This document shows positions 3,207-20,327 of a DNA stretch of 43,569 nucleotides, in pieces. Made by a program: the position numbers and the translations under genes. How positions within the stretch are numbered: the stretch's first letter is position 1; each line of letters starts with the position of its first letter. Below the pieces are notes generated by a model, which was given only the letters and a program-made list of their open reading frames with translations, did not search any database and was not told the DNA's origin. This DNA is from Candidatus Sumerlaeaceae bacterium (lineage in GTDB: Bacteria; Sumerlaeota; Sumerlaeia; Sumerlaeales; Sumerlaeaceae), in NCBI GenBank assembly GCA_026419455.1, contig JANZZJ010000255.1:1-43569 (forward strand), given 5' to 3'.

Positions 3207-3420
3207 AGCTTCCTTTCTTTCCCAGTAGAATGTGGGCTTCTCTTGCCCAAAAGCGCGCCCCCTGGCTTACGCGCTTGTAAAAAAACTACCACCAACGTTC
3301 CCGCGCCTCAGCCGACAGACACGCTACACGAACAGCGAAAACCAAAATCGCGTTGCTCTATTCACGCAACATGCGTGAAAGTATGATGGTAAAACAGCTA
3401 AGGATAAAGGTATATCTTCT

Positions 3421-4770: not shown

Positions 4771-4817
4771 ACAGCAACAATCCTCCTTAAGTAGAAATGA
4801 AAATTCTTTTAACGGGT

Positions 4818-6383
4818 CTATTGCCTGCTGCTCAAATCATCGAGCCACTTTTGGACTTCTTTTGCGCGTGGTCCTCCCATTTCAATGTAACGGGAGTAGT
4901 ACTGCAACGCCTTCTGAGGGTCATCTAGGTGTTCCTCGTAAAGAATTCCCAGATTTAAAGCAGCTTTATCATATCTGGGGTTAATTTGTAAGACCTTTTT
5001 GAACTCTTCTGCCGCTTTGGCGTACGCTCCGCTTTCCATGTAGACCACCCCCAGGTTGTTCCTTACGGTTGCGTTATTCGGATCGGCTCCTAAGGCTTGT
5101 CGGTAGGCCTTGATAGCAGCGTCGTATCGCTTGAGTTCGCGGTAGGTGTTTCCCATGCGGAAGAGGACTTTCGGATCGTTTGGATCCATTGCCAGCGCTC
5201 GGCGGAATTGCTCCTCTGCGACATCCACTTCACCGGCCCGAGCTAAGCACTCGGCAAGGAGAGCGCGTGTTTCCGCATCGTCGGGATTCTTTTCCAGAGC
5301 CAACTGATATTCATCTGCAGCTTCGATCCATCGCTGGGCTTTGCGGTAGTTATCTCCCTTCTCGCGGTGGAAAGCAAAAGTCCCCAAAAGTATTTTCCCG
5401 GGGTTGCCGAAACGTTTAGGTTGCTGTTGGGTGGCGTCTGTCTCCTCACTGAACGCCGCTTGGTTAATTGCCTTCACATCAGATGCGGCAGGAGCCGAAG
5501 CCACGCTTTCGGTCTTTGCGCGTTTAGGCTGGCCATCGGACCGCGTGGATCGTGTTCGCGACTGCTCGATAGAATTTTTAGTTGCGGGCGCCGTGGTTTC
5601 CTTTTTTCCGCGCCATAAACTAAACACCGGTAGCCTTGTGCCAGGAAGTTTCGAAGGTTCATCAGAACGTGTTGCGGCGTATCCGCGTCGTTTAGCAATG
5701 TCCGTCCCCGCTGTGACAATCTCGCGGGCTGGAACCTCGTTTACGATTTCGACCGGTTGCGACGGGATGACCGCATCGCGCACACTTCCAGTGGGAGCAG
5801 TGGGAGAAGAAGCAGGGATAGTAGGCTTTGCGCCGCCAAGAAGCTTCGGGGGCTTTGGAAGCAGGGCGCCTACGGCAAGAATGGTAGGCTTGGCTTCTTG
5901 CTGCGGTGACTCGTCAGGTTGCCTAAGCGATTCTAATGTTTCTTGTTCGTTAACGGTGGAATCGAAATTGATACGTTCTTGCCTTCGAGCGGTTTTAGTA
6001 TCGCCGATTTCACGCAAGGCTTGTTTTGCGAGCTCATATTCGGGATTTAACTCGAGGGCTTTTTCGAGTGCCACCACTGCTTCAGCTCTTCGGCCCGTTT
6101 TTCTATACGCTTGGGATAAGTTGTAATAAGCTGCGGGAGAGGGAGCAATCTCAACGGAGCGCTCCAGGGCTTGCAACGCTTCTCCAATGCGGCCGCTGCG
6201 CAGGGCTTCCTGACCTTCTGCGAGAAGAGCTAAAGCTTCGCGCCGTCCCTCCACTGGCCGAGACGAGCTGAGGATTGGCGGTAAAAGACATAAAAACACC
6301 AAAGTGATCCCTACGGCGTGGGCAGCTACCTGCAAGCAGCTCTTTCGGTACGCTCTGCCAACGACAAACGATACGACACTCAT
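4818..6383 (-). CDS. Membrane-anchored TPR-repeat protein
   Basis: There is an N-terminal hydrophobic span (AAHAVGITLVFLCLLPPILSS). TPR units sit at both ends, for example AYYNLSQAYRKTGRRAEAVVALEKALELNPEY and LFRMGNTYRELKRYDAAIKAYRQALGADPNNATVRNNLGVVYMESGAYAKAAEEFKKVLQINP. A roughly 250-aa low-complexity linker separates them. Confidence 0.8.
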   Translation of the reverse strand: MSVVSFVVGRAYRKSCLQVAAHAVGITLVFLCLLPPILSSSRPVEGRREALALLAEGQEALRSGRIGEALQALERSVEIAPSPAAYYNLSQAYRKTGRRAEAVVALEKALELNPEYELAKQALREIGDTKTARRQERINFDSTVNEQETLESLRQPDESPQQEAKPTILAVGALLPKPPKLLGGAKPTIPASSPTAPTGSVRDAVIPSQPVEIVNEVPAREIVTAGTDIAKRRGYAATRSDEPSKLPGTRLPVFSLWRGKKETTAPATKNSIEQSRTRSTRSDGQPKRAKTESVASAPAASDVKAINQAAFSEETDATQQQPKRFGNPGKILLGTFAFHREKGDNYRKAQRWIEAADEYQLALEKNPDDAETRALLAECLARAGEVDVAEEQFRRALAMDPNDPKVLFRMGNTYRELKRYDAAIKAYRQALGADPNNATVRNNLGVVYMESGAYAKAAEEFKKVLQINPRYDKAALNLGILYEEHLDDPQKALQYYSRYIEMGGPRAKEVQKWLDDLSSRQ

Positions 6384-6441
6384 TTCCTAGCACTCACTTT
6401 CTTCGCATCACTCAAGCCTACGCGATCCACATCGCTATTTA

Positions 6442-7128
6442 CTAGTGCGAGTAGTTCTCATCAGCAAACACTAGTTTGCCATTCGCAAAGCTAAAAACCA
6501 TCTCCTTGTTTGGGTGCCATGGAGAATTGTAAAACCACGTTTCCCGACGAATGTTTGGGGCTACGGTACTGCTCAAAACCTCACGCGGCAATCCATAAGT
6601 AAGCACCGTGCGTTCCTGATCGGTGAGCGGCCCTTCATATACCATCACTCCGTCCACAAACTGAAAGAGATGATTTAATCGGTGATAAACCCACTCCACC
6701 ACAGAGTCGCCCCGCGTGCTGCGATACGGGCCGCGCAAATAGTCTGGCTGTCCCCAACTCCGAAGGATGGCTTTTTGGTCTTCTGTGAGGACGTTTTCAG
6801 GTTGGCGCTTCAAGCGACCGCCCCGCTGGATATGTTCTACGCCCTGAGTGTTTGCGAAATAGGGATACTTGCGAAAATGCAGGAGAGTGGCACGATTATT
6901 GAGGGGGTACCGCTTGATGAGAATTGGTTTGCCGTCATCAGTAAAATCGGTCTTGGGACGTGGGGGGCAGATCTGATTAGGTTGGTATGACGAGGAACGC
7001 TCCCCACTTTTTGCCATGTTGAAAAATGGGATGGAAAAGTGTTGGGCGTGCACATTGATAGCTGCCAGCGGAGATAAAAAATAGCCGACAAGTGCGGCAC
7101 AAAAAAGTGCCCTTTGGGCATGCTTCAT
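6442..7128 (-). CDS. Secreted hypothetical protein
   Basis: I prefer the internal ATG 7128 (MKHAQRALFCAALVGYFLSPLAAINVHAQ, a signal peptide) because GAGGAG lies 6 nt upstream. The ORF-track start at 7290 adds 54 residues that do not look like a signal. I recognise no family. Confidence 0.6.
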   Translation of the reverse strand: MKHAQRALFCAALVGYFLSPLAAINVHAQHFSIPFFNMAKSGERSSSYQPNQICPPRPKTDFTDDGKPILIKRYPLNNRATLLHFRKYPYFANTQGVEHIQRGGRLKRQPENVLTEDQKAILRSWGQPDYLRGPYRSTRGDSVVEWVYHRLNHLFQFVDGVMVYEGPLTDQERTVLTYGLPREVLSSTVAPNIRRETWFYNSPWHPNKEMVFSFANGKLVFADENYSH

Positions 7129-7419
7129 AACTGGCTCCTCATGAAGGACATCATTCGCGACTAAATGTTGCTTTCCGACAAACAACTCAACACAGCCTAC
7201 GCATGCTAAGTTTTCAGTGCAAACCTTGTGCCATTGCGTTTCTGTGAAGCGTCGGCTGAGCTCAAGAATTTTTTTTTCTAACGTTCGCACGACTGTTCGT
7301 TGACGGCACTACTCAGCAGAAGAAAAGCTACGCGCTTATGTGTGCTTCTTCAGTTGACACAAAGCCAGGATCAAAGCCCAACTGCAGAGCTAGATGGGAA
7401 TAGAAAAGGTATCGATCTC

Positions 7420-7881
7420 ATGAATGCGAAATCTAAAAGAGTACTAGCGGGGTTGTGCAGTGTTGTTATTGTGGCTCTAACATTTTCGGTATTTGCTGGT
7501 AGCGAGTTACCGAAGTCGACGGATGGTGTATGTAGAGCTGCGGGCGACTCACGCTTGCCGAAAAAGAAAATTGGCCCGCCCGCTGGTGATTACTGTGTGA
7601 GCCGGGAAGCCCCCCTTCCCGTTCCGAGGAGGCGGGTCGGGCAGGGATTTAGATTATACCCAGACTACGGACCGACGTATTATTTTCCCGCGGCCTACCA
7701 TCGTTACGAGGGCGTCAATCCAAAGTATTATCCGTTCTACGTTCCTCGCTTGTGGCCTAATTACAAGAGTGAGGCCCAAAGACCACGCGGAAATTATTGT
7801 GGCATAAGTCGCAGCGGCTGGCAGTGGGACGAATACGACGACTGGGTGCGAGGCGGCCGGTACGAAGAGCGAAGCGAGTAG
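7420..7881 (+). CDS. Small secreted Tyr/Pro/Arg-rich hypothetical protein
   Basis: The internal ATG 7420 gives MNAKSKRVLAGLCSVVIVALTFSVFAGS, a signal or anchor sequence. The mature part is rich in Y/P/R (YPDYGPTYYFPAAYHRYEGVNPKYYPFYVPRLWPNY). I recognise no family. Confidence 0.5.
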   Translation: MNAKSKRVLAGLCSVVIVALTFSVFAGSELPKSTDGVCRAAGDSRLPKKKIGPPAGDYCVSREAPLPVPRRRVGQGFRLYPDYGPTYYFPAAYHRYEGVNPKYYPFYVPRLWPNYKSEAQRPRGNYCGISRSGWQWDEYDDWVRGGRYEERSE

Positions 7882-8359
7882 GTCGCACGCCCTGGGAAGC
7901 TGAAAATCCCATGCAGTGATTATAAGAAAACTTCCGCCGATCGTCGTAGTGGTGCCAATAGGTCACACAAAGTTATCGCACCGTTCCAAATGTGAACAGT
8001 CTGTACCATGAGATGGTTGGCGACAATGGTCTAGTCCAATCATTTATCCCTCAAAATTAAATAAAATGTTCGATCTCTTCACCGCTAAGTTCTGCCGTAT
8101 GAACGCGTGAGAATAGAAAGAGCCAAGAAACGACTGTCTAGACGAGGCGCGGCACGATAGTAGGAAACAACAGTGGGAAGGGTGGCATATAGTTTGCTTG
8201 AACCGCATTGTGTACGAGGGGGAAATAGTAAGAAGTGCAGATTATGCTTATAGTTAGGTTAGCAAGAGAAAAACGACGGTCGGATACGACCGTTACTCTT
8301 TCTGCGAGATTATAGAGGCAAGAGGCAGAAAGAAAAAAAGATTGAAGGAGGGTGCAGGC

Positions 8360-9232
8360 ATGACTCTTATGAAAGGTAGAAATCGAAATCTAATGGCTAC
8401 GGCAACATTGAAAAGAAAGCGCAGACATAGGGAAACCGATAAGAATAGTAAGGCTCCCAAAAAGAGGGATGAAGTGAAAGCCAAAGAGTTGCAGCCGGAG
8501 GCTACTGGGGAGCCGATCAGCGAGGAGCTTCTTGATCCTCACGACGAGGAGACACTAGATGTCCCCTATCCCAAGGACCTCGTTGAGAATATGAACGTCC
8601 TTGAGCAAGAGGGTGTGCGTCGCGGGGATCTGGACGAGATCTTGGGGCCAGAACGGTTCCTTACGCCAGAGGAAGAGCGAGAAGTCATTCGCCGCGTTCA
8701 GGAGGGCGATCGCAAGGCGTTTGAGGAGCTCGTCAACGCGTACAAGCGTAAGGCATACTATGTGGCTATCGGGTTCGTCAACAACCACGAAGACGCCCTC
8801 GACCTTTCGCAGGATGCTTTCGTAAAGGCGTTTAAGGCGATCAAGACTTTTGATCTCAATTCGCCCTTTTTTCCGTGGTTTTACAAGATCATCAAGAATC
8901 ACTGCCTGAACTACATCAAGAAAAGCGCTCGCGTCCGAAATGACTCCTTAGAGGAGTTAGAGGAAGAACAGTACATGCAGTTCCACGAGGAAAGACCTGA
9001 TCCCCGGGAACAGTTTGTTCAGTCCCAAGAACGCGAATTGTTGTGGGAGGCAATCCAACGGCTGAAACCGGATTTCAGAGAGATTATCATCATGAAACAT
9101 TTTCACAGCCTTTCTTACAAAGAGATTGCTTCTGCGCTGGACATTCCAATCGGCACGGTGATGAGCCGACTTTTCAACGCGCGGCAGGAGCTGCGGGTGA
9201 AGTACCTCGAAGTCTTAGGGGAAAAGAATTAG
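8360..9232 (+). CDS. ECF-type sigma-70 family RNA polymerase sigma factor with a roughly 100-aa charged N-terminal extension
   Basis: AAGGAGG at 8345-8351 lies 8 nt before ATG 8360. Region 2 reads EVIRRVQEGDRKAFEELVNAYKRKAYYVAIGFVNNHEDALDLSQDAFVKAFKAIKTFDLNSPFFPWFYKIIKNHCLNYIKK. Region 4 reads LKPDFREIIIMKHFHSLSYKEIASALDIPIGTVMSRLFNARQEL. Confidence 0.85.
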   Translation: MTLMKGRNRNLMATATLKRKRRHRETDKNSKAPKKRDEVKAKELQPEATGEPISEELLDPHDEETLDVPYPKDLVENMNVLEQEGVRRGDLDEILGPERFLTPEEEREVIRRVQEGDRKAFEELVNAYKRKAYYVAIGFVNNHEDALDLSQDAFVKAFKAIKTFDLNSPFFPWFYKIIKNHCLNYIKKSARVRNDSLEELEEEQYMQFHEERPDPREQFVQSQERELLWEAIQRLKPDFREIIIMKHFHSLSYKEIASALDIPIGTVMSRLFNARQELRVKYLEVLGEKN

Positions 9233-9265
9233 TTTAGCCTGTTGGCAGATTTGAGAAGTCCTCGT

Positions 9266-9300
9266 TCCCCCATCCGAAAGAGGACGGGGGATTTCTTTTT
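9266..9300 (+). terminator. Putative intrinsic terminator between the convergent sigma and aminotransferase genes
   Basis: TCCCCC / GGGGGA forms a stem with a 14-nt loop, followed by TTTCTTTTTT. An alternative GTCCTC/GAGGAC pairing overlaps it. Confidence 0.45.
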
Positions 9301-9304
9301 TACT

Positions 9305-10447
9305 TCACGGGAGGGCTTCTAGGAGTTGGTTGAGCTCTTTTTCGTCGTTATAAAAGTGCGGCGAAATCCTTAGGAATCCCCGCCGAGCAGCCACAAGAAT
9401 CCTTTTTTGCTGCAGTTCCTTCGCAAGAATCGCCGGATCTCCGGTAGGGAGTCGGACACTTACAATGCCAGCGCGCTCCTCCTGCGAACGAGGCGTGATT
9501 ACTTCATAATTTTTCTCGCTGAGTTTGCGGATGAGGAATTCGGTCAAAGTCAACACCCGCTCGCAGACATTCGGTATGCCTACGTCCAGAAGGAGGCGAA
9601 GGGAGCTTCCAAGAGCGTGTATCGTCATAAGGTTGTGGGAGCCCTCCTCGAAGCGCTTGGCATTGGGTTTATAAGGTTGATCATAAAGATCATAATCTTG
9701 GGGATTCAAGAGACCGCACCACCCGCACATACTCAGGTTCATGTCGTTGATACGGTCGGGGCGAACGTAGAGAATCCCACAGCCTTCCGGGGCGAGAAGC
9801 CATTTATGACCGTCCGCTGCTAGGAAGTCGATGCCAAGAGCCTCAACATCAATGGGAAGGACACCCAACCCCTGGATCGCATCAACAAAAAGGAAGACCC
9901 CTTTTTTGCGGCAAAGTTCGGCTATAGCCTCCAGATTGTTGCGAACACCTGTGGCATACTCCACCCATGAAACGGCTACGAGGCGCGTCCGGCTGTCAAT
10001 GGCATGCGCTAATTCCTCCAACGAATAGGTGAAATTGGATTTTTCTCTCACCATGCGGAACTCGACGCCACGCTCCCCCAGATTGCGCCAAGGGTGAACA
10101 TTGGCAGGGAATTCATGTTCAAAACCAACAACGTTGTCACCCTCACGCCAGCGCAGCGAGTTCGCTACAATGAGAACACCATGGGTTGTGTTGTGAACAA
10201 AACATACGTTTTCCGGCTTCGTATGAAGTAACTCGGCTGCAGCGGTGCGGGCCTGTGCCATTCCATGTAACCATGCCGCGTAGTTCGCAGGTCCCTCTTC
10301 AGCAGCGTCGCGCGCAAATTCAGTGATCGCGGTTTGAGTGGATGCAGGAATTGGGGCTACTCCAGCATGGTTAAGAAACACGTACTGCTCTTTTATTGGA
10401 AATTCGCTTTCCAAGCAAAAAGGGATTTCATTATGTGACATCATCAT
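9305..10447 (-). CDS. Class V PLP-dependent aminotransferase / cysteine-desulfurase-like enzyme
   Basis: The 380-aa ORF shows FLNHAGVAPIP near the N-terminus and the PLP-lysine context FLAADGHKWLLAPEGCGILYV. Overall length and layout fit aminotran_5 (CsdA / selenocysteine-lyase-like). Confidence 0.8.
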   Translation of the reverse strand: MMMSHNEIPFCLESEFPIKEQYVFLNHAGVAPIPASTQTAITEFARDAAEEGPANYAAWLHGMAQARTAAAELLHTKPENVCFVHNTTHGVLIVANSLRWREGDNVVGFEHEFPANVHPWRNLGERGVEFRMVREKSNFTYSLEELAHAIDSRTRLVAVSWVEYATGVRNNLEAIAELCRKKGVFLFVDAIQGLGVLPIDVEALGIDFLAADGHKWLLAPEGCGILYVRPDRINDMNLSMCGWCGLLNPQDYDLYDQPYKPNAKRFEEGSHNLMTIHALGSSLRLLLDVGIPNVCERVLTLTEFLIRKLSEKNYEVITPRSQEERAGIVSVRLPTGDPAILAKELQQKRILVAARRGFLRISPHFYNDEKELNQLLEALP

Positions 10448-10587
10448 GATGGTCCTCAGTTACTGGGTGTGAACTTAAGCCTGAGAGTATTTTCCCAAAC
10501 CAAATACACGTGAGAAGCCGCGTTGCGGAAGGTCAATCGTGTTGTTGTGGAGTCACCGCCACCGGCCTCCGAGTGGGTGTCTATGCG

Positions 10588-10953
10588 TCAGCGGTGAGCA
10601 GGGAAAACCTGCACCCGTGCACGCTCACGAGGATTCATAGGAGGCGCTATCACTTCGATCAAAGACGCACTTGTCTCTTCTCGCGCAGGCGGGTGAAGTG
10701 TGACAATTCCGCTCTGGAAGCGCCACTCCTTGGGCGTGGCAACCGTGGTTTTTGCCTGTAATATGGCACCGCGGAGCAGCCATTCGATGCGAGCCCGATC
10801 ATAACAACGCAGAACATGGTGGGTTTCCCTTATGTTCTGGCTACTGAGACCGAAGGCGAGAATTACGAGAACAGCAATCGCCCCGGTAAGATAGAGCATG
10901 GTAGTGCCGTAGGTGGCCGGCTTGGCCAGATAGGAACGATGGAGAAATCTCAT
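10588..10953 (-). CDS. Small pseudopilin-like membrane-anchored protein without Glu+5
   Basis: ATG 10953 forms an ATGA overlap with the stop of the upstream pilin gene. The ORF-track start at 10971 is an alternative. The N-terminus is MRFLHRSYLAKPATYG TTMLYLTGAIAVLVILAFGL, one hydrophobic helix after a Gly. It is the last gene of the filament module. Confidence 0.45.
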   Translation of the reverse strand: MRFLHRSYLAKPATYGTTMLYLTGAIAVLVILAFGLSSQNIRETHHVLRCYDRARIEWLLRGAILQAKTTVATPKEWRFQSGIVTLHPPAREETSASLIEVIAPPMNPRERARVQVFPAHR

Positions 10954-11537
10954 CGGTGCACCTCTTTCCAAAGCGGGTTCACTAGCGGAATCTTAGCCGA
11001 AGCGGTTATACGCACCTGATTGCGCAGATGATACGTCCCTAAGCCAGATTGACAGAGAAAACGGAGCTCGTGAACATCATACGGCTGGTGGTGCGCGTAA
11101 CATACGTTTTGGACATTTGACAGCAGTAGTGTTAGATGCGGCTTATGATTAGACGCCACGGCCGTTCCGCGAACGACTGTGGTTTTCCCTTTTTCGTGCG
11201 CGCTAATTTGATAAAAGCACGGATTCCGACTGTCTGTTGCGGGATACGAGATCGTTACAGTAGTGGTAAAAGCATCCTCTGATGCCTGTGCGCTCACCCT
11301 TACGTCCGAAGCGCCGTGGAAATCGTTGCGCCAAGTTCGGTCGAATTCTAGAAGTTCGGCGGTAACATATTCGTGCTCGCTGACAGCCCTTTCGAGACGG
11401 ATGATAAAGACAAATGACATGAAAAACCCCGCCGTCATAATAGCCAAAATTGCGATAGTGATCAGTGCTTCAATCAGCGTGAAGCCAATAGCCAGTTGAG
11501 ATGCAACTTGCATCCTGCCAAGAGATTGGCGTTGCAT
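10950..11537 (-). CDS. Prepilin-type N-terminal cleavage/methylation domain protein (pilin/pseudopilin)
   Basis: It has a class III signal: MQRQSLGRMQVASQLAIG|FTLIEALITIAILAIMTAGFF, the canonical G|FTLIE with Glu+5. Confidence 0.8.
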   Translation of the reverse strand: MQRQSLGRMQVASQLAIGFTLIEALITIAILAIMTAGFFMSFVFIIRLERAVSEHEYVTAELLEFDRTWRNDFHGASDVRVSAQASEDAFTTTVTISYPATDSRNPCFYQISAHEKGKTTVVRGTAVASNHKPHLTLLLSNVQNVCYAHHQPYDVHELRFLCQSGLGTYHLRNQVRITASAKIPLVNPLWKEVHR

Positions 11538-11540
11538 GGT

Positions 11541-11960
11541 TTAGTTCTCCTCTTTGGCCAACATTGTTTCGAGTGCTACCTTAAGCGGTTGCTGAGGGTG
11601 TTCTTTGCTTACTTCGGCCCGTAGATAAGGAACGTTCCCTTCGACAAGACCAATAACTACTTGCGAGCTATACGGCGGTTGAAGATCAGCTGTGGTAGGG
11701 TTGGTAAAAGAGAAGGTGCCAGTGGTGGGCATTCTTCCCGTCGTAGAAAATAGGGCATAGCGCCATTCCAACTCGTTTTGTGTCCAGATGAGCGCTCGCG
11801 CAATATCTCTGTGGCGGACAGCCGAGGACAAAGCTTTTTCAACGATGAAGAAAAAGCCAAGGAGCACCACCTGGCTGATAGCCATGGCGACTAATACTTC
11901 CCACAGCGTGACACCGTGGCGATGACGGTAGGAAGAATGTCTGTTCCAGAGCGTTTTCAT
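11541..11960 (-). CDS. Prepilin-type N-terminal cleavage/methylation domain protein (pilin/pseudopilin)
   Basis: It has a class III-like signal: MKTLWNRHSSYRHRHG|VTLWEVLVAMAISQVVLLGFFF, with Gly-1, Glu+5 and a hydrophobic helix. It is 139 aa. Confidence 0.7.
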   Translation of the reverse strand: MKTLWNRHSSYRHRHGVTLWEVLVAMAISQVVLLGFFFIVEKALSSAVRHRDIARALIWTQNELEWRYALFSTTGRMPTTGTFSFTNPTTADLQPPYSSQVVIGLVEGNVPYLRAEVSKEHPQQPLKVALETMLAKEEN

Positions 11961-11963
11961 AGG

Positions 11964-13043
11964 TTACTCCCCTAGCCTCACAAAGTATGTCCACCTCATG
12001 GCAGGTAGGAACACCGAGATGGCAAACGAGCCAACCATTACCCCGAGGACGAGAATGGCTAGCGGTTCGTACTTTTGGACAAGCACTTCGATGTTCCTTA
12101 TCTCGTCCGAAAGCCTCCTGCTAAGTTCACCCAAGTACTGAGGGAGGCGCTCGTAGCGTTCCGCTTGTTTGAGAAACCAGATTTCGCGCGCCGGGAAGAT
12201 CTGCGGACAGAGCGCAACAACGCCAGACAGCGGAGCGCCAAGTGCTAGCCCTTGTTTTGCGGCGTGCGCAGCACTGCTTACGAGAGGCAAGTCAGAATCT
12301 TCCGCAAGAGCGTCAAGGGCTTCAGAAAGAGGAATTCCATGCACTAATTGAAGCTCAAGAACGGAAACGAAGTGAAACTGCAGGTATCGACGAAACACTT
12401 GGCCATAACCGGGCATTCTGATGAGTATGCGGTGGAGTGCAGGATTTGCAGGCATTACCGCCCAAGCGATACCAAAAGCAACCGAGCAAACCCACGCAGC
12501 GGCAAAAGCTAATGCCACTCCGCGCATGGCCCAAATCGCATACTCGTGCAGATGACGCGCCGGAGCAGTAGGGTCAGAGAACCAGACGTGCTGGTGCATT
12601 TCCTCAATGAGTCGCCACTGGTGTGGGATTGCGATGAAGGCCACGACTGCCGAGATGATCGTCCCAACCGTAAGAACCGCAAAGGGATAGATTGCGGCTG
12701 TACGAAGTGCCGTCATCACATTGCGTCGCATCGCGAGAAATTGTGAGGCACGGGTGAGAGCTTCGCCAAGGTTGCCGCTCTTTTCTCCCGCTGCGACAAG
12801 CCCACGGACAATCGGATGAACCCACTCCTTAGCACGGGCGAGAGCCTCGCTCAACGAGCAGCCGTTGCTGTAGTGCGCAAAGATGCTGTCCAACAACTTT
12901 TGGAGTGAAGGTCGTTGAGCTTGCTCGCGTAGCATCATCAATCCTTCTCCTGCGTCCAGCCCGGCCGCATCGAGCTCGGCCAGTTCCGCTAAGACGGTTT
13001 CAATATCTGCATAGGTGTTACGCACGCCCGCCTCTCCTTTCAC
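11964..13043 (-). CDS. gspF: GspF/PilC-type inner-membrane platform protein (two T2SSF-like repeats)
   Basis: The 359-aa ORF has repeat 1, SLSEALARAKEWVHPIVRGLVAAGEKSGNLGEALTRASQFL, followed by a TM. Repeat 2 is PLSEALDALAEDSDLPLVSSAAHAAKQGLALGAPLSGV ... LPQYLGELSRRL, followed by a TM. Confidence 0.75.
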   Translation of the reverse strand: MKGEAGVRNTYADIETVLAELAELDAAGLDAGEGLMMLREQAQRPSLQKLLDSIFAHYSNGCSLSEALARAKEWVHPIVRGLVAAGEKSGNLGEALTRASQFLAMRRNVMTALRTAAIYPFAVLTVGTIISAVVAFIAIPHQWRLIEEMHQHVWFSDPTAPARHLHEYAIWAMRGVALAFAAAWVCSVAFGIAWAVMPANPALHRILIRMPGYGQVFRRYLQFHFVSVLELQLVHGIPLSEALDALAEDSDLPLVSSAAHAAKQGLALGAPLSGVVALCPQIFPAREIWFLKQAERYERLPQYLGELSRRLSDEIRNIEVLVQKYEPLAILVLGVMVGSFAISVFLPAMRWTYFVRLGE

Positions 13044-15139
13044 TCATAGGGGAAAAATTTATAAACGCTAAACATGACGATGTAAAAACTGGCAACAAAG
13101 CATACGAAGAAGCTCACAGTGGCGATGATCAGAAGAACGGAAAGCAGCATTTCTAACATTGCGGTCAAACACAGCGCACGGCGCTGATAGTTCTGCGCCA
13201 GGACCGCAAGAAGTGACGGCAGGTTTTCATGTTTGGCTCCCATGGCCAAATGAACCTTGAACCATGAGGGAAGTCCGCGAAGCGCCGCGAACGCGCGATG
13301 CAAAGGTTTTCCGCAACGAAGATGAGCAGTTAAGACTGGTACTTGACGCGCTAGAGCAGGATCGCCACTGGCAAAAACAGCGGTCTCAACAGCGCTTTCG
13401 ACTGGAACTTGCTTGGAGAGCTGAATACTTAGCGATTGAACTAAACGCCCTAACGCGCTTGCCCACCACACTTCCGCAAGGGGTGGCACAATGCGTGCCA
13501 CCAGACGGCGAAAATTCATCGAATGCAGAAAAGCAACTCGACCGACAAAGAAGCCAATGACAAGTGCAGGAAGAAGCCACGCGGCATGAACGGCTGCCGA
13601 GGCGGTAAATTCGAAAAAATCCAATGAGAGCGAACTCTTCGGAACAAAATAGCTGCTAATCTCAAGGTAGCGGGGAATGACAGTCTGCCACAGGAAAGAC
13701 GTCAGAACGATAGCAAAGAAGGTCTCAAGGAGATAAACTGACAACGTTTTTCTTCCCTCCCGAAAACGCCGTCGCTGACGCTGTCCGTCGGCGAGATAGC
13801 GGAGCATACGAGCTAAATCGACTTCATCCCTAGCGGAAGCAATTGCTGCTGCTTCCGCGGCGGAGAAGAAGCCGAAAGCGAATGCTGCTGCTTTCTCGAG
13901 GGAGTGGCCCCGTTCGAGATAAAACAGAAGGGGCGAGATTTGGCCCTTCACTCGAAGGAGGGCTTCGCTGATGAGGAAGCTACGTACAGCTTCGTGTAAC
14001 GGGTATCCGCTTTCGGCGGCAAGCGCAATGTGCTCGTAGAAATTTGCGCGCCAAGCGCCCGGAAACAAGTAGTGCCATACGGAACGAATGAAGCGTGCCC
14101 CCGCAAGCAACAGAAGTGGCAACAAAAACCATCCAAATAATATTGCGATACTGAGCTCACGCTGCCCCGTAATGCTGTCGACGACGAAAGCCATAACCCC
14201 GCCGAACACTGCTATCACCGTGTACCAAGAGAACGGCGCGGGGAGTTGGAGCCGGCGAAAACGGCGCGTTGGTAAACTAATTTCGATGGGAGAACTTGCA
14301 GGACGTATCCCAAGCACGATGAGCGGCACAAATAAGAGGAGAATTACAGTTACTGCCGCCACGCATATTAAATCGAAACCCGCATGAGGGACGGAAGTGG
14401 GCAGAATTTGTTGGCCTTGCTCTGAAAAAGATAGCGTTTCCGTTACGCGAGGCCATCCTGAAATGAGAGGAAAGAAGATCCAAAACCAGTAAGCCAGCGC
14501 CGCCAAAGTGAGGAATAAAAACACAGTTTTCCATCTGCGCCTTTCTGCCAACGATGCGGTTGAAGAAATGGGCCGATATAGCCAGGCCGTAGTTAGGGCA
14601 AAAATCACTAGCGTGTTAATCACTGTGACAGCTAAGGTCGGAAACCAGCTTGCCCAGTCGAGATCTCGAGCGACTGGCTTATGGATCACGTCGCGCCAAA
14701 AGGCGCCGAGACGACCAAACGCGGAAAGACTTGCAAAAACCAGAGCCGAGTAGAATGCGATGACTGATACTGGAAGAGCAGACTTTGGGAAACGAAGCAG
14801 AACATTTCTGACGCAAGCTTCGCATGAACGCACTAAAGCGTACAAGATTCCCCAGCCGACAAGAGCTAAGGTAATGCTGAGGTAGGTTCCTCGGTGCATT
14901 TGATACCCGTTTTCCGACAAAAAATACGGAATCAGCCACATGGCAAAGACAGCGATGATCACGACGAGAATGGCACCCAACCAGCTGCGGCGACGTGCTT
15001 GTGGGTGCTTTGGCGCGCTAACCAGCTTATCGAGATGACGAGCCCGCTCAGCGGACGATGGATGAACAGATTGTTTTGGTGGGCTTCCGTAGCTCAACTT
15101 TTGAGCCGCAGCCGATTTTTTGTCAGGCTTTCTGGTCAC
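13040..15139 (-). CDS. Fusion protein: a roughly 365-aa polytopic N-terminal domain of unknown family plus a GspF/PilC-type platform region (two T2SSF-like repeats)
   Basis: The 699-aa ORF has about eight hydrophobic spans by eye in residues 50-350. These are followed by YPLHEAVRSFLISEALLRVKGQISPLLFYLERGHSLEKAA...LARMLRYLADGQRQRRRF plus a TM, then PVESAVETAVFASGDPALARQVPVLTAHLRCGKPLHRAFAAL...LPSLLAVLAQNYQRR plus a TM. An ATGA overlap joins it to the next gene. Confidence 0.65.
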   Translation of the reverse strand: MTRKPDKKSAAAQKLSYGSPPKQSVHPSSAERARHLDKLVSAPKHPQARRRSWLGAILVVIIAVFAMWLIPYFLSENGYQMHRGTYLSITLALVGWGILYALVRSCEACVRNVLLRFPKSALPVSVIAFYSALVFASLSAFGRLGAFWRDVIHKPVARDLDWASWFPTLAVTVINTLVIFALTTAWLYRPISSTASLAERRRWKTVFLFLTLAALAYWFWIFFPLISGWPRVTETLSFSEQGQQILPTSVPHAGFDLICVAAVTVILLLFVPLIVLGIRPASSPIEISLPTRRFRRLQLPAPFSWYTVIAVFGGVMAFVVDSITGQRELSIAILFGWFLLPLLLLAGARFIRSVWHYLFPGAWRANFYEHIALAAESGYPLHEAVRSFLISEALLRVKGQISPLLFYLERGHSLEKAAAFAFGFFSAAEAAAIASARDEVDLARMLRYLADGQRQRRRFREGRKTLSVYLLETFFAIVLTSFLWQTVIPRYLEISSYFVPKSSLSLDFFEFTASAAVHAAWLLPALVIGFFVGRVAFLHSMNFRRLVARIVPPLAEVWWASALGRLVQSLSIQLSKQVPVESAVETAVFASGDPALARQVPVLTAHLRCGKPLHRAFAALRGLPSWFKVHLAMGAKHENLPSLLAVLAQNYQRRALCLTAMLEMLLSVLLIIATVSFFVCFVASFYIVMFSVYKFFPYE

Positions 15140-16391
15140 TGACTATCCCTCCCCGTAGGCGAATTGCTTCCTCGATGGAAATATGGTGGGCGAGCACCTC
15201 GTCGCGCAGGGCATGAGCCAAAGGACGCATACCGGCCACCACCAGGAGCTCAGCAATGTGGGAAGCTGTTGCTCGCTGGAGCACGGCTTCACGAACCTCA
15301 GCCGTAGGCAGGGCAAGTTCAAAAAGCGCGAATCGTCCTCGAGCCCCAATCCCTCTACACGCGGCACAACCGTTTGCAGAGACACCGATCAATTCAGGGA
15401 GTTCTTCACCTAGAAGAAGTCGTGCCTCCCAAGCTTCGACGAGACGCGGATGCGCACACTCGGGACACACGCGACGCGCAAGCCTTTGGGCGCAGATGCC
15501 TGTTACTGCCGAGGCCAGCAAGAAAGGTTCGATTCCCATGTGGAGTAGGCGTGCGTACACTTGTGCGGCGGTCCCTGAGTGGATAGTGGTAAGAACGCGA
15601 TGGCCACTTAAGCCAGCATGGATGGCAATTCGGGCGGTTTCTTCATCGCGGATCTCCCCTACCACAATCACGTCTGGGTCCATTCTGAGAATCGTTCGGA
15701 GGCCTGTTGCAAAAGTGAGTCCGCCAGCTGGATCTATTTGGGTTTGGTTCACCCCCGGCAATTCCTGCTCAATGGGGTCCTCGAGGGTGGCAATGTTCGG
15801 CGGATGAGCGAGCCGATCGAGTATGAAACGCAAGGCAGCGTAGATTGTTGTGCTTTTGCCACTGCTCGCAGGACCAGTCAGAAAGAGCACGCCGTGGCCG
15901 CCTAAAAGAATACGCTCCAGATTGATGCGGTCGCACTCTGACATTCCAAGATCTTTGAGATACAAAGGCGCATCAGTGACAGGCAGACGGAGGACAGCCT
16001 TTTCTCCGTGAAGCGTAGGCATGAATGCCGCGCGCACGCCGATGCCGCCCACGTCTACGCGCCCGTCTTGGGGAGCCCGCCGACGGTAGGTTAAAACCCG
16101 TGCCATCATTTTGAAACGGCCAATGAGGTTTTCACCAAGCGCTTTGGGGATATCGGCAACGGGGACAAGAATCCCTTCGAGACGGTAGCGCACTGCCCAC
16201 GCATCCCGTCCCGGTTCGATGTGAACATCGCTCGCTCCCAGCTTATCAGCGGATTCAAGAATGGCATCCGCAAGTTCAGGGATAGCAAGCTCTCCCTGGG
16301 TAATGAGGCGTTGGAACTCTGCTTTAAGTGCCTCTGGCAGAGCAGCCCGCGTTCCGTCACCAGCGGTGGGATATGTAGCATGGCTTCTCAT
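15123..16391 (-). CDS. gspE: GspE/PilB-family secretion ATPase (short form, without a long N-terminal domain)
   Basis: Walker A is LTGPASSGKST and the Asp box is ATLEDPIE. Walker B is DPDVIVVGEIRD and the His box is VLTTIHS. The tetracysteine motif CPEC...CAAC is present. The ORF is 422 aa. Confidence 0.9.
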   Translation of the reverse strand: MRSHATYPTAGDGTRAALPEALKAEFQRLITQGELAIPELADAILESADKLGASDVHIEPGRDAWAVRYRLEGILVPVADIPKALGENLIGRFKMMARVLTYRRRAPQDGRVDVGGIGVRAAFMPTLHGEKAVLRLPVTDAPLYLKDLGMSECDRINLERILLGGHGVLFLTGPASSGKSTTIYAALRFILDRLAHPPNIATLEDPIEQELPGVNQTQIDPAGGLTFATGLRTILRMDPDVIVVGEIRDEETARIAIHAGLSGHRVLTTIHSGTAAQVYARLLHMGIEPFLLASAVTGICAQRLARRVCPECAHPRLVEAWEARLLLGEELPELIGVSANGCAACRGIGARGRFALFELALPTAEVREAVLQRATASHIAELLVVAGMRPLAHALRDEVLAHHISIEEAIRLRGGIVSDQKA

Positions 16392-16444: not shown

Positions 16445-17344
16445 CTACTCAAGCAGCGGAACCTCTCGCTCGGACGACGGAGTAGTGCTACGTTGCTCAT
16501 AAACGAGCCATGCCACGGCACCGAATACCAAAGCTGCTCCAACCCAAAATCTTGCTGGCGGAAACTCGCCGAGAAAGACCACGGAGAAAAGTGAGCTCCA
16601 CGGTACCACCGTTAGCGATAGGAGACTTCCTTCAGCCGCCCTGACAGAACGGTATGCCTTGGTCATGACGAGCTGGGCAATCGCAGCGGAAGCAGCCATG
16701 AGAAAAAGCACCAGCCACTCGCTGACGTTTGGAATTTTGAACTCCACCACCACGAATGGAAGACTAAAAATAATGCCGACACCAGTGAAGAAAATGACAA
16801 TCCACCAAGATGACTCGACTTGGCGGAGACGCCGGACACTGACGATTGCGGCGCCAGTAAATACGCCGGCTAATAAACCCACAACATCGGCCAGAGATAT
16901 GGAGACAAAAGAGGTCGGCGAGAGCTCGAGGGTGATGGCAACGCCAACGACTGCAACCAACATGCTTACGAGCACACGTTGGGAGGGGCGCTCATCCAGT
17001 TCAAACCATGCTAAGAGAGTTGCCCATAGCGGATAAGTGTAACAATACAACGTGGCCTTTGGAAGCCCGCACCGATCGATAGCGTAGAAGTAACACAAAA
17101 GCGCGAGACTACCGAATACTCCACGCCAAACTAACCCGGAAAAGCGTCGTGGTCGGCCAAGTTTCTGGCCACTGGCAGCAACAAGCCCGAGGGTGATGAG
17201 CAACCCGAGTGTGCTTCGGAAAAATACCTTTTCAGCACTGGGTAGGTTGGTCAAAACACGAGTAAAAAGTGCCATAAATCCAAAACACAGGGCACTTAAA
17301 AGCATGAGAATACGGCCATAGGAAGAAGGCATAGACTCGCGCAT
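16445..17344 (-). CDS. EamA/DMT-superfamily transporter (10 TM)
   Basis: The 299-aa ORF has two EamA-like halves (LMLLSALCFGFMALFTRVL... and a second half beginning VVGLLAGVFTGAAIV). Its start ATG shares one base with the upstream stop (TAATG). Confidence 0.8.
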   Translation of the reverse strand: MRESMPSSYGRILMLLSALCFGFMALFTRVLTNLPSAEKVFFRSTLGLLITLGLVAASGQKLGRPRRFSGLVWRGVFGSLALLCYFYAIDRCGLPKATLYCYTYPLWATLLAWFELDERPSQRVLVSMLVAVVGVAITLELSPTSFVSISLADVVGLLAGVFTGAAIVSVRRLRQVESSWWIVIFFTGVGIIFSLPFVVVEFKIPNVSEWLVLFLMAASAAIAQLVMTKAYRSVRAAEGSLLSLTVVPWSSLFSVVFLGEFPPARFWVGAALVFGAVAWLVYEQRSTTPSSEREVPLLE

Positions 17345-19062
17345 TACTTGCTAGCTCCGGGCTGAGCAGAGAGCGGAGATGAGACAGGCGCGTAGAGGTA
17401 GTGGCGCCAAAGCCGGCCGCTTTCGTACCTTGCAACAAGCCGGTAGTTTTGGCGAATTTCCTCGCGCATCTGCAGCGTGAATGCATCCGTGTAAACGTCG
17501 TTTTGGAGATCCACAGTCGTCGCTATGAGGGAGAACTTCTTGTTTCTCAGGTCTCGCAAAAACGGTTCCTGGTCCCATCTCCCCTGACGAGCCAATTCGC
17601 TCATGATGAAAGGCTGGAAAAGGACATCTTTCTCGGCAAAAATGGTGTAGCATGCCAATTCACAAAGCACAGGCGACTTGGCAGCGCGGATCTGCTGGGT
17701 AAGCAGTGCTGCGTTTTTAAAATCTTCCGGCGACGGCTGTTTACTCATCAATATTGGTCTGAGATTGCCCATCGCAATAGTATGACAAAGAAGCAGCAGA
17801 GCCATGAGGTGGATGGGATCGTAAGCAAGGCCGGAGGTAGTCGAAGCGATTTTCAGCGATCGTGCCATCATCACACCGACGAAGAGAGACGCAGCCGCTA
17901 GTGGCTCGAGAAGATAATTCTCAGCACTTCCGGATTTCGCAATAGCAAGAATATTAATTAACGATGTAAGAAAATAGGCGACAACGAGAATGCCCGTGAA
18001 ATGCTGAGGCGAACGAGCTTGGGCAGCAGTAGCATCATTGCGGTCAACCGTCATTGCGGTTGAGGTGGGTGAGCCGATGTTCTCGCTTAGGAGGTGGTGG
18101 CCAGAATCATCATTGTTTGGGAGCAGGTCATTGTCGGTAGTTGAAGTTTCTTTCCTGAAAGTTGCGATAGCAAGACACGCAGCAATTAGGCCGAGCAGAA
18201 AGGGATAAAACCGCCACAGATGGCGCCCCCAGATTATCAAATCGTTCCAGTTCATCTGGTTGGCGTTATAGATAACTGTGTGAAGGAAGAACTGCCCCTT
18301 CGTCAAACCAGTCAGAATTAGGAAGGGTATTCCGATAGCGGAGAGGGTGAGTAAGAAAAACCGATGGGCGGCAGAACGATCGAAACGCAGCAGCGCCACG
18401 TAGGCAGCGACTGGTGCGCTCAAAGACGTTTGCTTAGTGAAAAAGGCCAACGCAAAAAGCACGGCGGCAAGGAATGCGTGGCGTCTTGCCGGAGAGCAGT
18501 GTAGCGCCGCTAGACCCGCAAGCGAGAGACCACACGCGAGAAAGTCTACTCGAAAATAAGGCGTCCAGCTGTAGACCTCATACGTTGCGAGATAAAGGCC
18601 AACGGCAACGCAAGGAGCGACAAACGATCTCGCTGCGAGCACGCTCGCAAGCCCTAACGCGAACAACGTCAGCAACAAACCGCCAGCCGAAACAAGGCGT
18701 CCTCCCCACAGCGAGGGGATCTCAGCCGATGTAAAAAGCGAGCTCGCGAGAAGATATAGAGGTGGGTAAGTTCCCACAATGAATGGATAGTCGTTAATCG
18801 GGCGGTACGGTAGACGTCCCTTCCTGAGGTCAAGCACCTGCGCGAGCAGAGCACCTTCCTCATTGTCGAGCTGGAAGTATGGGTGATCGAGTCCAACCGC
18901 GAGACGGCTAACAACGGCACTGCCACCCTGAAACACCAACCACAATGCACTGACAAGTATCAGCAACGCAGCCGGTAACAGTTTTAGTGGAGGCAGTAAC
19001 TTTCGTGGGGCAGTAGAGGACGTTCCCAGCTCTGGTGCTTCACGCTGAGGATTGTCCCACAT
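17344..19062 (-). CDS. GT-C fold membrane glycosyltransferase (ArnT/PMT_2-like)
   Basis: The 572-aa polytopic ORF has a first periplasmic loop reading LDNEEGALLAQVLDLRKGRLPYRPINDYPFIVGTYPPLYLLASSL. This matches the DE..Y...A......G...P......KPPL.YW pattern of ArnT/PMT-type enzymes. There is a C-terminal soluble domain of about 130 aa. Confidence 0.65.
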   Translation of the reverse strand: MWDNPQREAPELGTSSTAPRKLLPPLKLLPAALLILVSALWLVFQGGSAVVSRLAVGLDHPYFQLDNEEGALLAQVLDLRKGRLPYRPINDYPFIVGTYPPLYLLASSLFTSAEIPSLWGGRLVSAGGLLLTLFALGLASVLAARSFVAPCVAVGLYLATYEVYSWTPYFRVDFLACGLSLAGLAALHCSPARRHAFLAAVLFALAFFTKQTSLSAPVAAYVALLRFDRSAAHRFFLLTLSAIGIPFLILTGLTKGQFFLHTVIYNANQMNWNDLIIWGRHLWRFYPFLLGLIAACLAIATFRKETSTTDNDLLPNNDDSGHHLLSENIGSPTSTAMTVDRNDATAAQARSPQHFTGILVVAYFLTSLINILAIAKSGSAENYLLEPLAAASLFVGVMMARSLKIASTTSGLAYDPIHLMALLLLCHTIAMGNLRPILMSKQPSPEDFKNAALLTQQIRAAKSPVLCELACYTIFAEKDVLFQPFIMSELARQGRWDQEPFLRDLRNKKFSLIATTVDLQNDVYTDAFTLQMREEIRQNYRLVARYESGRLWRHYLYAPVSSPLSAQPGASK

Positions 19063-19065
19063 TCT

Positions 19066-20268
19066 TTAGCTCCCCTTTTCCCATGTTCGTATGACACGAA
19101 GTACAGCATTTGCCACTTCGCGGCCTGTCATCGCCTGCATGCAGGTTGGTACTTTGTCGCATTGTTTGAGGTAACACGGGCTACAATCAAAATCTGTGAT
19201 AACCTTTTCCCCGCGGTCATAAAGGTCAATCTCTACTGGCGAGGTTGAGCCAAAGAGGGCCACCACATACTTGCGCAGAGCAATGGCAATATGCATCGCG
19301 AGACTATCCGAGCTGACAACGATGTCACACGCGTCGATGATCCCAAAGAACTCGTCCAATGAATTGTCGCATCCCGTATCTACAAGTCCCTCGGAAGCTG
19401 ATAAAATAGCTTTGTTCATATCCCTTTCAGCCGGGCCACCTAGTAGAAGTAGTGTAGCCTGCGGGACCTGTTGCTTGAGCTCGTTGATCAGCTCAACCCA
19501 CCGTTCGACCGGCCAAAGCTTAGTACGAAAGACAGATCCGCAGCCGGTATTAAGTCCGATCCAGGGGTGTGCCGCGTTGGGTAATTGCTCAGCCAAGCGC
19601 GCACGACGGGTTGCGGCTACCTCGGGTAGGTAAAGCTCGTAGGGGTCGCGCTGATAAGGGATTTCCGCCATTTCAGCAATAATTTGCGGATAAGTTTTTT
19701 CATTAATATGAAATTTTAATTCGTCGCTAATTCCCAATAACAATGCGTAGACGGAAGACGCATTAAATACGGTGGGCGTGTTCCAAATCGTCGGGGCAAA
19801 GCCACGGTGGACGCGTGCAGGGACCCGACCTGCAAGAGCGAGAGGTGCAGGATCTTTTTCAAAGTTAAGCAGGAGATCGAAGGTTTCGGTAACCAGTAGT
19901 TTCTCTGTAGTCTCATCTAAGACGAAGAGTCGGCAGATTTTGGGATTATGAATGAGTAAAGGGACTGCCGATTTATCCGTAACCCACGTGATGGAGGCTT
20001 CAGGGTACATTCGCACCAACGGCGCCAACAAGGTTGTCGTGCGCAAGACGTCCCCCATCGCGCCGGTCTTAATGATAAGGATCTTGTAGGGCGAGTCGTC
20101 GCGTACGTCGCGAGGTGGTGCAAGCACACGGACAGGGGTAGCGGGTTCAGCAGCATAAGGCTCGCGTGGCTCATAATGCCAACAACCTTTGCACTCGTTG
20201 CCGTAGCGGCAAGGCTTGTAGCCAGTGTAGAGTACGCAGTCAAAACGGATATCTGAAAAATCCACCAT
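19066..20268 (-). CDS. Glycosyltransferase family 9 (heptosyltransferase-like) with an N-terminal Cys-rich extension
   Basis: The motifs KILIIKTGAMGDVLRTTTLLAPLVRMYPEASITWV, LLLLGGPAE and DIVVSSDSLAMHIAIAL are present. A C-terminal CSPCYLKQCDKVPTC is also present. The N-terminal roughly 60 aa carry C-x8-C-x5-C-x2-C. Confidence 0.8.
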   Translation of the reverse strand: MVDFSDIRFDCVLYTGYKPCRYGNECKGCWHYEPREPYAAEPATPVRVLAPPRDVRDDSPYKILIIKTGAMGDVLRTTTLLAPLVRMYPEASITWVTDKSAVPLLIHNPKICRLFVLDETTEKLLVTETFDLLLNFEKDPAPLALAGRVPARVHRGFAPTIWNTPTVFNASSVYALLLGISDELKFHINEKTYPQIIAEMAEIPYQRDPYELYLPEVAATRRARLAEQLPNAAHPWIGLNTGCGSVFRTKLWPVERWVELINELKQQVPQATLLLLGGPAERDMNKAILSASEGLVDTGCDNSLDEFFGIIDACDIVVSSDSLAMHIAIALRKYVVALFGSTSPVEIDLYDRGEKVITDFDCSPCYLKQCDKVPTCMQAMTGREVANAVLRVIRTWEKGS

Positions 20269-20327
20269 AGCTCTGAATTTGTCGGTAATGAAGAATGCTG
20301 ATGCAATGCAACCGCTAACAGCACAAG

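Follow-up and report, generated by a model that had tools for sequence, protein, structure and literature searches.

The subject of this report is a module of six genes, packed closely together on the minus strand of a 43,569-nucleotide stretch of DNA from a Candidatus Sumerlaeaceae bacterium (this whole stretch being referred to throughout as the window), that encode a short ATPase of the GspE/PilB class, two platform proteins of the GspF/PilC kind and three small pilin-like proteins. What is new about the module is that it has two different full-length platforms where the described bacterial machines of the GspE/PilB class use one. The genes, with the two parts of the longer platform gene given separately, are as follows (aa, amino acids; TM, transmembrane helix; ORF, open reading frame):

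15123-16391, minus strand: E, a short GspE/PilB-class ATPase, 422 aa
13040-15139, minus strand: F-long, the A-type platform (hereafter A), whole ORF, 699 aa
14075-15139, minus strand: N-terminal extension of A, residues 1-355, a basic head followed by about eight predicted TMs
13040-14074, minus strand: GspF/PilC-like part of A, residues ~356-699, with two T2SSF domains and three TMs
11964-13043, minus strand: F-short, the B-type platform (hereafter B), 359 aa (353 aa in the version of the gene caller, which begins at 13025)
11541-11960, minus strand: p1, a putative minor pseudopilin, 139 aa, with class III signal ...HRHG|VTLWE and Glu+5, weakly GspI-like
10950-11537, minus strand: p2, a putative minor pseudopilin, 195 aa, with class III signal ...AIG|FTLIE and Glu+5, weakly GspJ/ComGF-like
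10588-10953, minus strand: p3, a small protein with a predicted pilin fold, 121 aa from the ATG at 10953 (127 aa from the TTG at 10971)

Reading of the ORFs reproduces the arrangement given in a preliminary description of this DNA, in which the six genes are joined by overlaps of 17, 4 and 4 nucleotides and gaps of 3 and 3 nucleotides. Its statement that the flanks carry no further parts of such a machine was also borne out, in that none of the other ORFs scanned in the 43.6-kb window matches a secretin, an A24 prepilin peptidase, PilM/N/O/P, GspC/L/M or PilT, and none gives a Pfam match that would place GspC/L/M, GspD or GspG together with E and F; the syntenic relatives of the module likewise lack these genes. 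There is no gene for a major pilin in the operon (nothing resembling GspG or ComGC), and, among window ORFs of at least 60 aa, class III signals occur in p1 and p2 only. A scan for promoters and terminators gave counts at chance level, and the stretch is contained in one public sequencing run, a DNA run from a hot-spring metagenome.

E matches the Pfam family T2SSE (PF00437) at 8.6e-95 over residues 36-411, and the motifs ascribed to it earlier are all present (Walker A GPASSGKST, Walker B DPDVIVVGEIRD, the His box and a CxxC...CxxC zinc motif); Pfam, the sequence itself and matches to solved structures agree in making it a PilB/GspE-family ATPase with Walker A and B, Asp and His boxes. Its domains are N2, the catalytic domain and the tetracysteine zinc motif, with no N1/GSPII_E_N domain. 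The NCBIfam GspE model (TIGR02533) covers E only over model positions 104-484 of 486, scoring 360 bits against a cut-off of 630, and it is because this alignment begins at position 104 that the N1 domain is taken to be absent; nor can the start of E be moved upstream, the end of an EamA gene being 53 nt away. The PilB model (TIGR02538) similarly aligns over positions 178-559 only (322 bits, cut-off 676), while ComGA gives 195 bits (cut-off 300), PilT 115 bits and the TadA-family model 36 bits (cut-off 373), E lying below every NCBIfam equivalog cut-off. Among solved structures it is roughly equally close to EpsE (1p9r, 7.9e-82), Thermus PilF (~1e-75) and Geobacter PilB (~5e-74), with PilT far weaker (5e-25).

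Both platform genes contain T2SSF (IPR018076), but they do so in very different settings. B is the plainer of the two: it matches Pfam T2SSF (PF00482) at 6.1e-32 in two stretches, as had been proposed, has a simple topology of three TMs with no N-domain, and aligns with the NCBIfam GspF model over positions 67-396 (122 bits, below cut-off) and with ComGB over positions 4-326 of 332 (70 bits, cut-off 240). For A, the proposal of two T2SSF repeats was upheld (T2SSF 1.4e-13, two stretches), with the correction that both are confined to residues ~365-690, so that only the C-terminal half of the protein is GspF-like; residues 365-675 align with positions 66-380 of the NCBIfam GspF model. A structure predicted by AlphaFold2 (AF2) has a pLDDT (per-residue confidence score) of ~90 over residues 360-699, and in Foldseek the GspF-like part matches the cytoplasmic domains of EpsF, OutF and PilC with probability 1.0, TM-scores of 0.7-0.84 and a root-mean-square deviation of ~2 Å. 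The window A and B are only 20 % identical to one another. In Candidatus Sumerlaea chitinivorans, which has four platform genes, F407 and F415 (the A-type) can be aligned with the last 340 residues of the 699-aa protein, and F350 and F344 (the B-type) with the 359-aa protein.

The most telling difference between the two types concerns residues that line the centre of the platform in the best-studied example. PulF is a trimer in which a central channel is constricted by Y168 in the first transmembrane segment (TMS1) and E370 in the third (TMS3), each followed by an invariant proline (PMC10790770, Guilvout et al. 2023), and these channel residues are reported to be conserved in all GspF/PilC homologues (PMC10790770). 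In our motif alignment both the Tyr-Pro and the Glu-Pro are retained in all eight B-types (as IYPF and YEPL in the window), as they are in canonical F proteins, whereas they are missing from all ten A-types, which instead have a near-invariant Glu slightly further along TMS1 (E472 in the window). In a subgroup of shorter A-types (L087, L090 and P0104/P0088/P0091/P0171) the prolines are kept and Phe takes the place of both Tyr and Glu (FP/FP). The second signature, the GE-x-(S/T)G-x-L patch, is degenerate in both cytoplasmic domains of the Sumerlaeota A-types; in B it is canonical in Cyto1 (AGEKSGNL) and altered to AE-x-x-E in Cyto2. The A-types are conserved down to 21-30 % identity, with invariant positions of their own. 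Maximum-likelihood trees of 10-15 A and 8-10 B sequences, together with some 45-50 canonical GspF, PilC and ComGB proteins, recover an A clade and a B clade each with 100 % SH-aLRT (approximate likelihood-ratio) support, B falling among the canonical platforms and A on a long branch, with the ComGB proteins of Bacillaceae as a separate clade. The branching order within A broadly matches that within B. On this sequence evidence, A and B are distinct platform types of ancient divergence.

The A-types also carry additional TMs ahead of the GspF-like part; the short forms have two of them and the lineage of the window about eight, and in the window eight hydropathy segments precede residue 350 and AF2 predicts a helical bundle at a pLDDT of 45-80. 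The large extension has no Pfam family and no credible Foldseek match, is represented by only four 50 %-identity cluster representatives among 1.84 billion proteins, and is found neither in the S. chitinivorans A-types (Fa/Fc) nor in the short A-types, each of which has two extra TMs at this point; residues 1-355 constitute a lineage-specific polytopic extension. Polytopic proteins that lie between A and B in two of the related loci (L087 and L090) give no signal of homology to it. A word-indexed search with F-long found one homologue, and the same search with an A-type profile added nothing new. The possibility that the extension is a fused prepilin peptidase, which would also have about eight TMs, was considered and rejected: there is no conserved Asp pair, no Pfam or fold match, and the extension is missing from S. 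chitinivorans.

As regards the small proteins, the class III signals previously noted in p1 and p2 are indeed present. For p2 the matches just exceed the relevant cut-offs (Pfam N_methyl 1.7e-4, 21.4 bits against 21.2; IV_pilin_GFxxxE, TIGR02532, 17.7 against 16.3), with weaker matches to gspJ (1.7e-3) and ComGF (2.5e-3), while p1 falls just short (N_methyl 1.8e-3, 18.2 bits against the same 21.2; TIGR01707 gspI 5e-4, below cut-off) but has the G|VTLWE junction. Eight orthologues of each conserve a core, AQNELEWW and F-x-NPTA in p1 and RLER and WR-x-D in p2. The third protein, p3, had been described as a single helix without Glu+5. The lack of Glu+5 was upheld, the N-terminus (R/Y)G|TTMLY being conserved in eight loci, but the single helix was not: AF2 predicts a pilin fold (mean pLDDT 81.5), with a 58-residue helix at 12-69 followed by a four-stranded sheet, so that p3 is modelled as a mini-pilin rather than a bare helix. 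It has no match among the hidden Markov models (HMMs) of Pfam and NCBIfam, and its best Foldseek matches are minor pseudopilins of type II secretion, namely the XcpGHIJK model 9a1f_R (probability 0.97, TM-score 0.55), then XcpV and EpsI, all with weak E-values. In its N-terminus without Glu+5, p3 appears GspK/PilX/ComGG-like. Taken as a set, the three proteins resemble a priming or tip complex.

Genomes and metagenomes were scanned with an alignment of the module ATPases. On its earlier description the cluster should recur in related genomes, and it does, as E-A-B-p1-p2-p3 with the order of A before B fixed, as far as the contigs reach; ATPases in these loci are 53-82 % identical to that of the window, and the nearest outside the module family reach no more than 45 %. 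The closest genome match in the ATPase scan is the metagenome-assembled genome (MAG) Candidatus Sumerlaeota QZM1.54, with an ATPase identity of 71 %, and there is a syntenic locus in CP030759.1 (GCA_003290465.1), the genome of Ca. Sumerlaea chitinivorans BY40 (PMC8092238, Fang et al. 2021). The versions of the module are:

L001: E420-F701-F353-139-195-122, with F-long 60 % identical to that of the window
L005/L006: E420-F728-F353-137-186-122
L007: E419-F703-F352 and three small genes
L089: E420-F664-F353-143-193-119
L092, L093: truncated versions
L087: F403-TM185-F349-137-184-125 (A-X-B-p1-p2-p3)
S. chitinivorans (L003): F407-F350-E421-F415-F344-145-188-126 (A-B-E-A-B-p1-p2-p3)
L090: E410-F402-F468-F347-141-173-120-F398-TM269-F351 (E-F'-A-B-p1-p2-p3-A-X-B)

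In each of the last two entries the A-B pair has been duplicated as a pair, giving four platform genes in S. chitinivorans and five in the metagenome contig L090, in the latter alongside one ATPase. In the trees the S. chitinivorans duplicates are in-paralogues within each type, which implies that the A-B pair was duplicated as a unit. In L090, which spans 1646-11025 of Logan contig SRR29758287, the remaining platform gene, the 402-aa F', represents a very divergent third T2SSF type. Comparison with L001 gives dN/dS values of 0.07-0.19 for five of the genes, with A at ~0.18; these figures are approximate, dS being saturated, and for the ATPase dS was undefined. Both platform paralogues are under purifying selection.

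Beyond this family, metagenome loci with more distant ATPases (37-45 % identity) and an adjoining F gene are mostly canonical pilB-(pilT)-pilC arrangements with one F, comprising a PilB of 550-640 aa, often PilT, and a single PilC of 400-430 aa. The sole exception among them is L095 (positions 6051-12241 of JGI Ga0315280_10008090), where a short ATPase (425 aa, 45 % identical) is accompanied by two F genes of 489 and 350 aa, both YP/EP-like, by small pilin-like ORFs and by a protein of 265 aa whose N-terminus is of prepilin type; in the trees the first F gene of L095 falls beside the A clade with moderate support (92). This suggests that cassettes with a short ATPase and two platforms occur outside Sumerlaeota, and distant ones such as L095 may belong to the same class as the module. 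Apart from the Sumerlaeota MAG, the genome scan found short ATPases in Selenomonadaceae, Wallbacteria, Elusimicrobia and Armatimonadota with no T2SSF ORF within 8 kb; loci of this kind (L010, L009, L067, L076 and about 70 more, with GspE-like ATPases 36-42 % identical, from Selenomonadaceae, Wallbacteria and Elusimicrobia) seem to be orphans in unrelated contexts and, having no platform gene, are uninformative as to a two-platform layout. The 90 %-identity cluster of P0006 (identical to L003:10001-11035, an S. chitinivorans B-type) also contains a record, D6691_03620, labelled 'Candidatus Hydrogenedentota bacterium', a MAG that is probably mislabelled or misbinned.

Some of the neighbouring genes are also shared among these loci. 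Ahead of the module and on the same strand (window 16445-22709) are genes for an MsbA-like ABC exporter, a GT9 heptosyltransferase, a 572-aa polytopic protein and an EamA transporter; the polytopic protein has no Pfam match, but its orthologue in L089 weakly matches GT87. Genes of these four kinds (MsbA-like ABC, GT9, GT-C-like and EamA) precede the module in all Sumerlaeaceae-type loci. In L090 there are no glycan genes beside the module, which shows that the glycan genes and the module are separable units. Two genes downstream of the module, and convergent with it (window 8342-9232), lies an ECF-type (extracytoplasmic function) sigma factor gene whose product has an N-terminal extension of ~100 aa, and which is kept in every syntenic Sumerlaeota locus. 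In L090, for its part, the genes directly upstream of the module encode an ECF sigma and a putative anti-sigma of 280 aa, but the idea that the two sigma factors are orthologues was rejected, their 19 % identity amounting to generic family similarity, so that no regulatory link is shown. The window ORFs at 3421-4770, 6442-7290, 7300-7881 and 22645-23433 (193-449 aa) have no Pfam match; for at least two ORFs, the one of 449 aa and the one ahead of the TPR (tetratricopeptide repeat) gene, synteny is kept in L001, L003 and L005.

One further matter has to be settled before the module can be interpreted, namely where the rest of such a machine might be. The description of the module as minimal and secretin-less holds at the locus but not at the level of the phylum, as can be seen from a KEGG table covering 16 Sumerlaeota genomes (PMC8092238 Data Set S1), where pilD and gspD are each listed for 15 (gspD in 1-7 copies), pilQ for 13 and pilM for all; copies per genome are 1-12 for pilT, 1-8 for pilB, 1-7 for pilC and 1-26 for gspG-like genes. 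The accompanying paper speaks only of 'type IV pilus-dependent twitching' (PMC8092238). Since the missing components are listed elsewhere in Sumerlaeota genomes, they are most likely supplied in trans, from elsewhere in the genome of the host.

Taking all of this together, the six genes probably encode the core, at the cytoplasmic membrane, of a type IV filament machine that is non-canonical, of the pseudopilus type and characteristic of Sumerlaeota. The platform of such a machine would be driven by a hexameric GspE/PilB-class extension ATPase, which, lacking N1, would offer no docking site for partners of the GspL/PilM type. The platform would be made of two obligatorily paired full-length paralogues. 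B would be the conventional, channel-competent subunit, retaining the constriction formed by Tyr-Pro and Glu-Pro as well as a canonical Cyto1 patch, and A a diverged subunit that has lost this signature, has kept a membrane-embedded Glu in TMS1 and has 2-8 extra N-terminal TMs. The two would co-assemble into a hetero-oligomeric platform, with A taking on the anchoring or alignment roles that belong to GspL/M/C or PilM/N/O in canonical systems, while p1, p2 and p3 would be minor pseudopilins making up a priming or tip complex, and genes elsewhere in the genome would supply the prepilin peptidase, the major pilin or pilins and, if there is one, the outer-membrane secretin. That A and B are functionally paired is suggested by their fixed adjacency and order, their duplication as a pair, the broadly congruent trees and their complementary motifs; it is from this co-inheritance and complementary loss of motifs that we infer a hetero-oligomer, and a division of labour between A and B is likewise proposed. 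A more specific and considerably more tentative version would see in the module an undescribed class of GspE/PilB-type filament system in Sumerlaeota, with an obligate A-B hetero-oligomer in which B keeps the signature for ion channelling and pilin handling that A has given up, the extra helices of A replace GspL/M/C or PilM/N/O, and additional A-B pairs act on the same motor for other pilins encoded in trans.

There are several points that weigh against this interpretation. The case for contact between A and B is indirect, and co-inheritance and congruent trees are to be expected for any two genes of an operon. The current trimeric model of the platform cannot be symmetric with two types of subunit and so gives no account of their stoichiometry. 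Confidence in the model of the N-terminal extension of A is low and no relatives of it are known, the HMM likeness of p1, p2 and p3 to GspI, GspJ and GspK is weak and mainly N-terminal, and it is by extrapolation from other Sumerlaeota genomes that a peptidase, a secretin and a major pilin are placed in trans.

The alternative that survives best, though it is an unlikely one, is that A and B each build a homo-oligomeric platform of their own, the two alternating on one ATPase, either for extension and retraction or to serve different sets of trans-encoded pilins. The presence of a single ATPase with no PilT in the locus would fit such an arrangement, as would the addition of A-B pairs with no extra ATPase and the 1-26 GspG-like genes held by Sumerlaeota genomes, and the same idea was once proposed both for TadB/TadC and for the archaeal EpdJ/EpdK (the Tad version being quoted in PMC4371748). 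However, a platform made of A only would be unlike any known, as its homotrimer would have a channel not lined by YP and EP; A and B are always adjacent and have been duplicated together, not independently; and PilT genes do exist elsewhere in Sumerlaeota genomes.

Still harder to sustain is the proposal that A has ceased altogether to act as a platform and is now a membrane scaffold or sensor repurposed from the GspF fold (for instance a gate, or a tether to the upstream envelope-glycan genes), with B alone as the platform. The loss from A of YP/EP and of both GE-x-SG patches, its gain of 2-8 N-terminal TMs and the constant position of the module after the MsbA-like ABC, GT9, GT-C-like and EamA genes in Sumerlaeaceae-type loci can all be read in this way, but the separation of these genes from the module in L090 detracts from the last of these points, and A retains the full two-domain, three-TM architecture of GspF with cytoplasmic domains predicted at high confidence. 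This proposal also overlaps with that of a hetero-oligomeric platform, since a scaffold that binds B would be a heteromeric platform.

Finally, it is very improbable that the module is a fragment of an ordinary type II secretion system (T2SS) or type IVa pilus, in which the second F plays no particular part, being a duplicate that is redundant or in decay: the presence elsewhere in Sumerlaeota genomes of genes for a secretin, a peptidase, PilM/O and PilT, the similar distances of the ATPase from GspE and PilB and the placing of B among canonical F proteins would all allow it, but A is conserved at 21-30 % identity with a pLDDT of ~90 in its GspF-like part and a dN/dS of ~0.18, the ATPase lacks the N1 domain through which GspE and PilB bind their partners and falls below all equivalog cut-offs, the operon has no major pilin gene, and in the canonical loci that were recovered a long PilB is combined with one F.

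Two questions currently discussed for these machines are whether the platform is a dimer or a trimer and whether ions are conducted through a central channel lined by Tyr and Glu (PMC10790770, PMC10191384), and a system with paired platforms, channel residues in only one of them, no N1 and no alignment proteins at the locus bears on both. The A/B system would provide a naturally asymmetric complex for structural work and would allow the features that a platform needs to be assessed subunit by subunit, while the pair itself offers an independent parallel to TadB/TadC and to the archaeal EpdJ/EpdK. It also follows that not all of the 'PilB/PilC' genes counted in surveys of Sumerlaeota genomes belong to pili for twitching motility.

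It remains to set the module beside the systems already known. The preliminary description had taken canonical T2SS, type IVa and Com systems to use a single platform, and Tad systems two with one domain each, and this agrees with a recent review, according to which type IVa pili, T2SS, type IVb pili and Com pili have one two-domain platform each, TadB/TadC (with one domain each) being the curious exception (PMC10191384, Pelicic 2023). In the literature searched we found no paired full-length platforms for a bacterial system of the GspE/PilB class, the two-platform systems found being only Tad and those of archaea.

Among single-platform systems the Com pilus (ComGA-ComGB-ComGC..GG) is similar in overall plan, being a minimal filament whose operon has no secretin or alignment genes, with a short ATPase lacking N1, a platform without an N-domain and a run of small pilins of which the last lacks Glu+5. 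The module differs in having two platform genes rather than one and no ComGC-like gene in its operon, and its ATPase is closer to the GspE and PilB models than to ComGA, the equivalog scores of ComGA and ComGB not being reached. Moreover, the Com pilus is a system of monoderms, whereas the host of the module has genes of lipopolysaccharide type (the GT9 heptosyltransferase and the MsbA-like exporter) and is on that account probably diderm.

Several parts of the module are like those of T2SS: the ATPase scores best on GspE models, B keeps the equivalents of Y168-P169 and E370-P371 of PulF, and the three small proteins resemble the tip-complex proteins GspI, GspJ and GspK. On the other hand, the locus has neither the N1E domain (which binds GspL) nor genes for GspC/L/M/D/G/H/O, and p3, at 121 aa, is far smaller than GspK. 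A Gsp system would have a single GspF with Tyr-Pro and Glu-Pro and a GspE with N1E at equivalog score; here there are two full-length F genes of which only B has the motifs, the second being devoid of the channel signature, and E does not attain that score. From the type IVa pilus the module is set apart by the absence of a long PilB with domains of the GSPII/MshEN type, and of PilM/N/O/P/Q/T from the window.

A platform made from two proteins does have precedents, both archaeal and bacterial. In the Epd pilus of Methanococcus maripaludis (EpdL with EpdJ and EpdK) both platform proteins are essential for piliation (PMC4371748), and two platform proteins are also found in the archaeal type IV filament 'subsystem 4A' (PMC13705601). 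The module shares this feature with them, but their platforms are of the archaeal FlaJ/TadC type, their ATPases belong to an archaeal clade and the filaments are archaeal pili. The Tad/Flp (type IVc) pilus is the bacterial precedent. Its platform proteins have one platform domain each, having arisen by gene fission (PMC10191384), where A and B have two, and the ATPase of the module is not of the TadA type, nor are its pilins of the Flp type. Even so, TadB and TadC, like A and B, are two co-transcribed platform paralogues served by one ATPase, and they have been proposed to form a hetero-oligomer, a trimer of heterodimers, which offers a parallel to the paired platforms of the module.

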